Source: Syntrophales bacterium (GTDB lineage Bacteria > Desulfobacterota > Syntrophia > Syntrophales > UBA6807). Taken from it: a stretch of 64,000 nucleotides of DNA. The stretch covers positions 608,001 to 672,000 of the forward strand of contig JAXGPA010000001.1 of NCBI GenBank assembly GCA_040767195.1. Reading direction: 5' to 3'. This document shows positions 31,087 to 32,772 of this stretch, piece after piece. The first letter of the stretch is position 1. Each line of letters begins with the position of its first letter. The position numbers and the translations under genes are program-made. The notes below the pieces were generated by a model, which saw nothing but the letters and a program-made list of their open reading frames with translations, did not search any database and was not told where the DNA came from.

Positions 31087-32772
31087 ATGAGACTTATTTA
31101 TATCACCGACGTTCACGGCGCTTTCGAACGGGTCGGGCAGATCCTCTCTGAAACGGTGGCCGATCTCTACATCATTGCGGGCGACATCGTCGACATATCC
31201 TTTCACACCGCCAGGACGGCCATCGGTTATCACGACCTTCAGACTTACTTTCACAGCCTGAGACGAGGCCGGGGCAAGGCGGACCTGTCCCTGGAGGACT
31301 TCGTCGACGAACTCCTCGAAGAACCGGGCCTGCCGGGGGATCTCCTGGAAAAAGGAGGCCGGTACCGCCGCGAAACCCTTCACGCCCGTCGCGCCCTGCG
31401 ACAACAGTACCGGCTTCTTGAAAACATCATTGCCCTTGAATGGCGAAGCCCCGTATTCTGCCTTCCGGGAAACCACGACATGGACCTCGGGCACACAGCC
31501 CTCAAGGAACGGGACCTCCACATGATTTGCCGTAACGCCGGCCCGCTCCGGGTGGCGGGGTACGGCGGGGCGGGAGGGCACACCCCCGGGATCCCGGAGC
31601 GATACATGGTGAAATACCGGGCCGGAACGGGCATAAGCGAAGAGAACAACGAGATGTATCGCTTCTTCAGAAATAACGAGCCCCACATCATCGTAAGCCA
31701 TCAGCCGGCTTACGGCATCCATGATTTCGTTCCGCCCATGGGTGAAACGGGATCCATCGCCCTTCGCAGGTACTGCGAAAAACATCCCGTTCTTCTGTGC
31801 CTTACCGGTCACCTCCACGATCAATGGGGCCTGGAGGAATCGGACGGGACCGTTTTTCTCAACCCGTCCCACTTCGGGGAAATCGCCCGGGACAGAGGCC
31901 AGCGGTCCGAGGGGGGGTTTTTCTTCGACGTGGACATGGGAGAAAAGGGCGTGACCCGGGTCAGGCACAGAAAGCTTGCCGCAGGAATCATCTACGATGT
32001 GGTGGTGCACAAACGGCAAGGCGGCCTTTGGAAACAGGAGGTGACGGACCGGGGCCGTTACGAGGCGCTCCTGACGGGACGGAACTGCGAGACCGGAAAG
32101 GACAGTGGAACACATATTTCCGATGACACCCTGGAAAAAGAACTTCGGAGATTCTACGATCTTTTCCAGAAAGCGGGATCCCGGGGAAAAGGGCCGGTCC
32201 TGGAAAAAGCCCTCCGCCTCCTGGAAAAAGGCTTGCCGAAGGATTTCGCCGTGGACGTCATGGCCGGGTCCCTGGAGGGGTCGTCCCCAAAAAAAGAGGC
32301 GGACGTGGATCTCGTCTTTTACCTCCGTTGCGGAAGATCGGGGATCTTCCCCTGCGACTCGGACAAACGGGCGGCCTGCCCCCTCTTTCTCGAGGCAAAG
32401 GAGAAAATCGGGGAAATTCTGGGGGATGACATCACCTTCGCCGTCGCCGACTGTATCGACATGGACCGGGTGGCCCAAAGCGTGGGTGACAAAAATTACG
32501 ACTGCCAGCTGACCCAGCGTTTCGTCTCCTACCGCGCCATGGCCCGCCTCGTCAACGGCCCGGTGGTTGCCCCGGTAGCGGCCCTGATCGCCGAAAACGA
32601 GGACTTCCGCCGGGAAATCGAGGGATGCATCCGGTCTTATTTCAGCATCTTCCTGGAAACGGCCCGGCATGTCCCGTCGTTCGCGAAATATGAATCGCGC
32701 CTGAAGGCCATGGGCATCATTATTCCCGAACCGATTGCACGCAAGCTCCGGGCATTCCTGAAAGATCAGTAG
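31087..32772 (+). CDS. Calcineurin-like metallophosphoesterase fused to a C-terminal nucleotidyltransferase-like domain
   Basis: All five phosphoesterase motifs (TDVH, GDIVD, GNHD, SHQP, GHLH); C-terminal GS-x10-DVD (AGSLEGSSPKKEADVDLVFY) matching the Pol-beta NTase signature. Confidence 0.8.
   Translation: MRLIYITDVHGAFERVGQILSETVADLYIIAGDIVDISFHTARTAIGYHDLQTYFHSLRRGRGKADLSLEDFVDELLEEPGLPGDLLEKGGRYRRETLHARRALRQQYRLLENIIALEWRSPVFCLPGNHDMDLGHTALKERDLHMICRNAGPLRVAGYGGAGGHTPGIPERYMVKYRAGTGISEENNEMYRFFRNNEPHIIVSHQPAYGIHDFVPPMGETGSIALRRYCEKHPVLLCLTGHLHDQWGLEESDGTVFLNPSHFGEIARDRGQRSEGGFFFDVDMGEKGVTRVRHRKLAAGIIYDVVVHKRQGGLWKQEVTDRGRYEALLTGRNCETGKDSGTHISDDTLEKELRRFYDLFQKAGSRGKGPVLEKALRLLEKGLPKDFAVDVMAGSLEGSSPKKEADVDLVFYLRCGRSGIFPCDSDKRAACPLFLEAKEKIGEILGDDITFAVADCIDMDRVAQSVGDKNYDCQLTQRFVSYRAMARLVNGPVVAPVAALIAENEDFRREIEGCIRSYFSIFLETARHVPSFAKYESRLKAMGIIIPEPIARKLRAFLKDQ

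Follow-up and report, generated by a model that had tools for sequence, protein, structure and literature searches.

A metallophosphoesterase fused to a drifting nucleotidyltransferase-like domain and paired with a GAF-GGDEF gene in a Syntrophales bacterium

In the 64,000-nucleotide stretch of a Syntrophales genome analysed here (the window), one gene codes for a calcineurin-like metallophosphoesterase (MPE) joined to a nucleotidyltransferase (NTase)-like domain, and a gene for a protein with GAF and degenerate GGDEF domains follows closely behind it. We see about an even chance that this unit is a phosphodiesterase carrying an NTase-fold domain that is no longer an active writer, and that it works with the GAF-GGDEF protein as its putative nucleotide sensor. 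Read directly from the sequences are the fusion, the intact MPE site, the closeness of the two genes, the NTase's decay or disappearance across the clade, and the loss of the partner's guanine pocket. The original prediction was of a self-contained enzyme that both makes and breaks a nucleotide signal or mark, a description that overlooks the partner gene at 32803-33825; an MPE with a decaying writer and a GGDEF-fold sensor is more likely than a working self-contained write/erase enzyme. The features of the locus are as follows.

31087..32772, + strand: fused gene for the MPE and NTase-like domains, 561 aa; an open ORF to which homologues align from Met1
31087..32085, + strand: calcineurin-like MPE domain, residues 1-333 (PF00149, E 3e-11; ligands D8, H10, D33, N129, H205, H242, H244)
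31210..31440, + strand: three-helix insertion, residues 42-118, between GD and GNxD; present throughout the MPE-NTase family, split forms included
32116..32769, + strand: Pol-beta/MNT-like NTase domain and C-terminal helical part, residues 344-561, assigned by homology to canonical members; drifting in the GGDEF-linked clade
32266..32310, + strand: GS-x10-DVD, G394-D408; D406 and D408 are kept, the GSxNxG..SD context of the family is missing
32329..32379, + strand: C-x7-C-x7-C loop; the outer Cys hardly vary among canonical copies, and fewer than half of the GGDEF-linked clade have them
32443..32460, + strand: VADCID with D455, a candidate for the third catalytic Asp (120 of 121 homologues have Asp here)
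32677..32700, + strand: S-F-x-K-Y-x-x-R tail motif; S, K, Y and R are invariant across fused and standalone forms
32803..33825, + strand: partner gene, GAF and degenerate GGDEF, 340 aa, 30 bases downstream of the fused gene
33538..33579, + strand: RxxD I-site motif (R246, D249) and then GADEF (255-259) in the partner, by sequence motif

The fused gene is present in a single copy in the 2.39-Mb genome, which is 98.8% complete. Every element of the predicted calcineurin-like site was found (DxH, 31108-31116; GD, 31180-31185; GNHD, 31468-31479; GHxH, 31807-31818), as were the three NTase-type motifs GS-x10-DVD, C-x7-C-x7-C and VADCID, and because these are conserved columns across 121 aligned homologues, with D8, H10, D33, N129, H205, H242, H244 and D408 invariant, they are not chance occurrences. 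The seven metal ligands are likewise invariant in 50 members of the GGDEF-linked clade. A structural model of the MPE domain (pLDDT 82) has the four-layer MPE fold, and its best matches by VIA-align are TT1561 (1uf3; Z 19.8, rmsd 2.3, 196 residues aligned) and aq_1956 (2yvt; Z 19.6), whose description as 'Icc-related predicted phosphoesterase' is also the JGI name of many homologues. Neither protein has been characterised; each is a single domain (228-257 aa) with no NTase and 13-20% identity to the window MPE, and a PDB sequence search with the whole 561-aa protein returned nothing at E<=1. The long helical insertion that had been proposed between GD and GNHD is borne out by the model, which predicts helices at residues 42-61, 69-77 and 84-118; Y48, R101, R102 and Q106 within it are invariant.

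Most homologues (109 of 121) have GNYD in place of the GNHD seen in the window, and GNHD is limited to the window's own sub-branch, which makes up 27 of the 54 GGDEF-linked copies, the remaining 27 having GNYD. In CthPnkp, hydrolysis of monoesters and 2',3'-cyclic substrates requires the His after the Asn, and that of acyclic diesters does not (PMC2190708, partial text). Because GNYD lacks that His, we predict that canonical MPEs are acyclic phosphodiesterases, an activity that would fit removal of an NMP mark; the Tyr-to-His change in the window sub-branch fits a shift to cyclic-nucleotide or monoester substrates. The metallophosphoesterase PptH, a phosphopantetheinyl hydrolase, removes a protein modification attached through a phosphodiester and thereby opposes a transferase (PMC8557913, partial text), which provides a precedent for an MPE as the eraser of a protein mark. 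It has the same fold as the window MPE (Z 13.4), although at 15% identity this is a fold-level likeness only, and it is unfused and opposes a phosphopantetheinyl transferase rather than an NTase.

The window protein belongs to a sizeable family, with 290 full-length homologues among 7,999 scored candidates and 324 matching stretches in GTDB genomes. Its hosts are Syntrophales-type deltaproteobacteria, Desulfomonilia, Spirochaetota and a small number of other groups. In the window's order, 132 of 301 genomes carry a match, and well over 100 of 401 Spirochaetota genomes have strong ones. The two domains are fused in Syntrophales-type deltaproteobacteria and many Spirochaetota, and lie on separate neighbouring genes in Leptospiraceae-like genomes. 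Standalone NTases of 205-240 aa, from sources named Leptospiraceae or Leptospirales, were identified with a profile of the C-terminal domain, and the cognate 333-aa MPE, insert included, lies directly upstream in 10 of the 20 loci fetched. The family NTase consensus is D-h-h-G-S-x-N-x-G-x5-S-D-I-D, a third Asp (D455) and the SFxKYxxR tail, and the full signature is present in 163 of the 164 copies that have no GAF-GGDEF neighbour (153 fused, 10 split); at the level of sequence, the family thus carries the hG[GS]-x9-13-Dh[DE] signature with a third acidic residue. There is also a mirror-image form, in which six fused proteins lack the MPE ligands and five of these keep the strict NTase pattern. 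When longer proteins containing the standalone NTase were sought, three phosphoesterase fusions were all that came up, which is weak evidence.

The pairing of MPE and NTase is old and deliberate, and defines a conserved, uncharacterised family. Its two halves stay linked, within one protein or in neighbouring genes, as opposing activities would be expected to do, and a writer/eraser pair tends to leave just such a record of fusions, adjacent genes and separate losses of one half or the other. We think it likely, from these patterns of conservation, that the family pairing writes and erases a nucleotide mark. The ancestral NTase would attach an NMP, the most probable acceptor being a protein side chain, as with MNT and GlnD/GlnE-type enzymes, and the ancestral phosphodiesterase would remove the NMP put on by the family NTase. 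Full-text searches outside subscription journals found no description of the fusion, the split pair or the pair of MPE with degenerate GAF-GGDEF, although an earlier mention in a survey is possible, and none of these architectures appears in the available portions of PMC2190708, PMC12943098, PMC7824862, PMC9503650, PMC12409994 and PMC8557913.

Several further members of the family are of interest in their own right. The other 10 of the 20 fetched loci (L145, L147, L149-L151, L155, L158, L160-L162) hold a second NTase paralogue with no MPE beside it; this orphan paralogue of Leptospiraceae-like genomes has GSxNxG..SDxD intact, and many genomes hold both paralogues. A protein of 229-244 aa from an unassigned family is coded directly upstream of the split pair in 8 of 10 loci (L144:8879-9568 and equivalents), and in 7 of 10 a 122-141 aa protein containing Cys pairs follows the pair. 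The mirror-image fusions are from Spirochaetota (P0124-P0128 and P0130; L115 and L110 in G042), and G042 carries two fused paralogues. Distant standalone NTases (P0195, P0197, P0206, P0211, P0213, P0221, P0222) have the N-terminal helix and SFxKYxxR and lack the Cys loop, and the canonical fusions L293-L295 (in G664, G445 and G528), at 601-613 aa, have ~40 extra residues inserted close to where the NTase domain starts.

Among known systems, GlnD offers a close parallel in organisation, with a Pol-beta NTase uridylyltransferase and an HD uridylyl-removing hydrolase, and hence two opposing activities, in one polypeptide. The C-terminal domain of GlnE is a weak structural match to the window NTase (Z 3.9), and a cluster named GlnD is among the Atlas matches (TM 0.46). 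The window protein differs in that its hydrolase is N-terminal and calcineurin-like instead of HD, and in that the NTase of its clade is decaying. Pfam finds Metallophos only, with no HD or ACT domain, so the protein is not of the GlnD/RSH type, and the gene context shows no link to PII or glutamine synthetase. No neighbour is conserved around 167 canonical loci, where the largest group (21 of 167) is a mixture of promiscuous receiver, PAS and HD-GYP proteins at varying positions, and gene context points to no substrate or target of the window protein or of the family. We also considered the fatty-acid metabolism shared by the host groups as a pointer to the target, and found no support for it.

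The NTase also resembles MntA/MNT of type VII toxin-antitoxin systems (7ae2, 1no5, 3c18; Z 5.0-5.2) in its minimal core, GS-x10-DxD and third Asp, and a profile comparison matches the MNT-type structure 9xbd (E 0.0076). The family differs in having an extra N-terminal helix, the Cys loop and a helical tail of ~100 residues with SFxKYxxR, and in having a phosphoesterase rather than HEPN as its partner. It scores 14 bits with the MntA model, for which the NCBIfam cut-off is 60, and has no recurring HEPN-sized partner, and thus falls outside type VII; nor is it a CBASS CD-NTase, with no PADLOC CBASS model matching at E<=0.01 and no conserved effector neighbour. An anti-phage or toxin-antitoxin role of the MNT-HEPN or CBASS-like kind is accordingly extremely unlikely. 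It would draw on the weak MntA likeness (E 0.024-0.033, far under the cut-off; Z ~5) and on a match of the MPE to the PADLOC candidate PDC-S10 (E 4e-14), but that match spans the generic phosphoesterase core only, and no HEPN, effector or defence neighbours were seen at the loci examined. The standalone NTase, searched by tblastn with one query, was not found on 72,556 plasmids or 50,697 phages, and the split form sits in a housekeeping context, beside neighbours that we take from sequence likeness to be recG-like and gpsA-like.

RNA end healing, with the MPE clearing 2',3'-cyclic or 3' phosphates and the NTase re-extending the end, is a very unlikely role, though one with parallels: CCA-adding enzymes with an HD domain also join an NTase to phosphate clearing. 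The best Pfam match of the NTase is to an MTPAP-like palm, the helical insert is basic, and the calcineurin-like healing domain of CthPnkp acts beside a nucleotidyl-transfer domain (PMC2190708, partial text). However, the GNYD of most members lacks the His used for 2',3'-cyclic and monoester hydrolysis, the NTase is minimal and has no RNA-binding body, and none of RNA ligase, RtcB, Hen1 or a nuclease recurs beside the 167 canonical loci.

The C-terminal domain of the window copy is certainly homologous to the canonical family NTases by alignment, and it is an unusual one. The predicted GS/DxD motif is well conserved across the homologues, with D406 an Asp in 115 of 121, and the proposal of D455 as the third Asp is supported to the same degree. 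The three-Cys loop holds up in its outer Cys residues (C415 in 119 and C431 in 120 of 121), the middle Cys being present in 78 of 121 only. Pfam supports an NTase fold for the family, which is Pol-beta/MNT-like (PF22600 is matched by 74 and PF01909 by 72 of 80 aligned members at E<=0.05); the window copy has drifted from this context, and its C-terminal domain alone matches no Pfam family at E<=0.1, nor at E<=0.05 in a second search. Family residues N396, G398, S405, K354 and R368 are replaced, and the NTase loop has one extra residue before GS, with pLDDT <50 at 397-402. Foldseek with the C-terminal model, a check that had been proposed for the fold, gave nothing at E<=0.001, and the VIA-align matches of the window NTase to three MNT-type structures (Z 5.0-5.2) are tied with unrelated matches at 5.4-5.6; for a standalone homologue, the neighbours in the Atlas search are clusters of NTases (TM 0.36-0.50).

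This drift is shared by the relatives of the window copy that have the same partner. We kept 232 distinct closed ORFs from 287 rows, set aside 14 with fewer than 600 bases downstream in which no partner was seen, and scored a copy as linked if a GAF-GGDEF gene lies behind it, overlapping or within ~180 bases. Among the 54 GGDEF-linked copies, two are canonical, seven (the window copy included) have only GS..DxD, and the motif is gone from 26 and the whole domain from 19. They form one clade (SH-aLRT 99; 100/99 once two long rows are omitted) nested among the canonical fusions, from which we infer a single capture of the GAF-GGDEF gene followed by decay. The linked and unlinked loci counted were picked by score, not at random, and as the clade is a single evolutionary event, the two-by-two table amounts to one observation rather than 54. 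The sister group of the window's sub-branch consists of 19 phosphoesterase-only genes with the same partner still behind them.

The decay is concentrated in the NTase half. Columns at least 90% conserved in 154 canonical fusions are retained, on average over 35 linked fusions, at 0.86 in the MPE and 0.52 in the NTase. Median omega is 0.295 for the NTase and 0.146 for the MPE over 53 linked pairs, compared with 0.102 and 0.108 over 324 canonical pairs, the pairs in neither set being independent; the NTase/MPE rate is ~2.4x in the linked clade versus 1.0 in canonical copies. Since its omega is well below 1, the linked-clade NTase is still under selection. No full-strength family NTase was found elsewhere in 26 of the 34 genomes with a writer-less linked copy; an intact one is present in the other eight, and MAGs can miss genes. 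As most genomes of the lineage show no intact writer, the hydrolase presumably acts on a nucleotide made by other enzymes, and in the linked clade it is probably independent of a family writer, and this suggests as its substrate a small nucleotide from elsewhere or from the partner.

The proposal of a bifunctional write/erase enzyme thus suits the family, with its conserved NTase and halves kept together, and is weakened for the window by the NTase losses and faster NTase evolution of its clade. That the window copy is still bifunctional, its NTase writing an NMP mark or nucleotide that the MPE removes and the GAF-GGDEF protein only tuning the balance, is a possibility that we regard as somewhat unlikely. 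Its NTase could be active, because GS, D406, D408, D455 and SFxKYxxR are all present, with GS at the 10-residue spacing, and the tail motif is otherwise scarce in the clade (seen in just 6 of 35 GGDEF-linked fusions). Homologues L164 and L171 share this motif pattern, comparison with L164, the closest relative (94% identical), reveals no excess NTase change (dN 0.024 for the NTase and 0.032 for the MPE), and the 98.8% complete genome has no other NTase of the family. Against this, the extra loop residue and replaced family residues noted above and the missing Pfam match all tell, the first Asp is missing from six of the 12 homologues closest to the window copy, among which the GS-to-D spacing varies from 8 to 10, and the window copy and L171 nest among motif-less copies.

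The partner protein bears on what has taken the writer's place. The roles of the guanine-site, metal and triphosphate residues of GGDEF domains come from work on PleD and WspR. Aligned to solved GGDEF domains, the partner has Gly for the guanine-site Lys, Thr for Asn and Ala for Asp, reads GADEF, and lacks the signature of an active diguanylate cyclase (K..N....D and GG[DE]EF). By contrast, the canonical K..ND..GH..GD signature is present in at least five GGDEF domains of the window genome, so c-di-GMP can be supplied in this host. The RxxD I-site lies five residues before the GGDEF position, and is present in 32 of 50 partners, the window's included. GdpP couples a degenerate GGDEF domain to a phosphodiesterase, and GGDEF-EAL hybrids likewise set a non-catalytic GGDEF sensor beside an intact hydrolase; the window pair differs from both in that its hydrolase is calcineurin-like and is encoded on a separate gene.

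It is also conceivable, if distinctly unlikely, that the partner has replaced the writer, being itself active in nucleotidyl transfer with a changed base specificity and making a non-c-di-GMP signal that the phosphodiesterase destroys. D214, D216, D257, E258, K328, R332 and R334 (the DxD, the DE of G[AG]DEF and the triphosphate positions) are invariant in 50 of 50 partners, there is a new conserved H/Q-M-R-R motif with an invariant Gly where the canonical Lys sits, NTase decay tracks the arrival of the partner, and most writer-less linked genomes hold no other writer. However, the partner has lost the catalytic Lys as well as the D..LY conserved in the last helix, and the substitutes differ by sub-branch (T/E versus N/Q), unlike what one new specificity would give. 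The invariant residues are also commonly retained by sensors: degenerate GGDEF domains often keep the metal and triphosphate residues while sensing GTP or c-di-GMP (PMC12943098, partial text). We likewise give a low probability to the broader proposal of an undescribed system for reversible NMP marking, with an eraser of the calcineurin type, present as a core pair in Leptospiraceae and a fusion in syntrophs, in which the window lineage has a GAF-gated GGDEF-fold writer of a non-c-di-GMP signal.

We favour the reading in which the partner acts as a predicted nucleotide sensor rather than a c-di-GMP synthase. One lineage would have captured the GAF-GGDEF gene and retained the hydrolase, while its writer drifted until only a structural role was left; the linked-clade hydrolase would cleave a small nucleotide produced by other enzymes, and may be governed by GAF input and by c-di-GMP bound at the partner's I-site.

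Several bacterial control circuits are built around opposing NTase and hydrolase pairs, and the MPE-NTase family would add a calcineurin-like eraser, along with its target, in two poorly studied groups. The deAMPylases listed in the available part of a 2025 review are of FIC, ATase and SidD-type folds only, with calcineurin unmentioned (PMC12409994). What is new here is that the window copy is an atypical member, on a side branch with a probably decaying writer and a GAF-GGDEF partner, and canonical copies, rather than the window copy, are the right starting point for biochemistry. The intact fusion, the split pair, the dead hydrolase with an intact NTase, and the dead or deleted NTase with GAF-GGDEF make a natural series that supplies ready controls for a substrate search.

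At the locus itself, no sigma-70 promoter match was found in 30700-34100, where terminators occur at chance level only, and there is no Rfam match in 28000-38000. In the RNA runs, four contig sets cover the fused gene, its partner and the opposite-strand neighbour equally, and coverage that is equal over both strands shows neither expression nor co-transcription. A 597-aa antisense ORF spans the fused gene (30877-32670, - strand), and is likely a codon-usage shadow; a comparable antisense ORF is present in 78 of 81 loci. Two predicted lipoproteins are coded nearby on the - strand, one of 501 aa (26760-28265) with no Pfam match at E<=0.1, and one of 984 aa (33845-36799) with a weak PKD-like match only. 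The gene for the latter is missing from the equivalent position in a genome of the same genus (L003), and was thus probably inserted.
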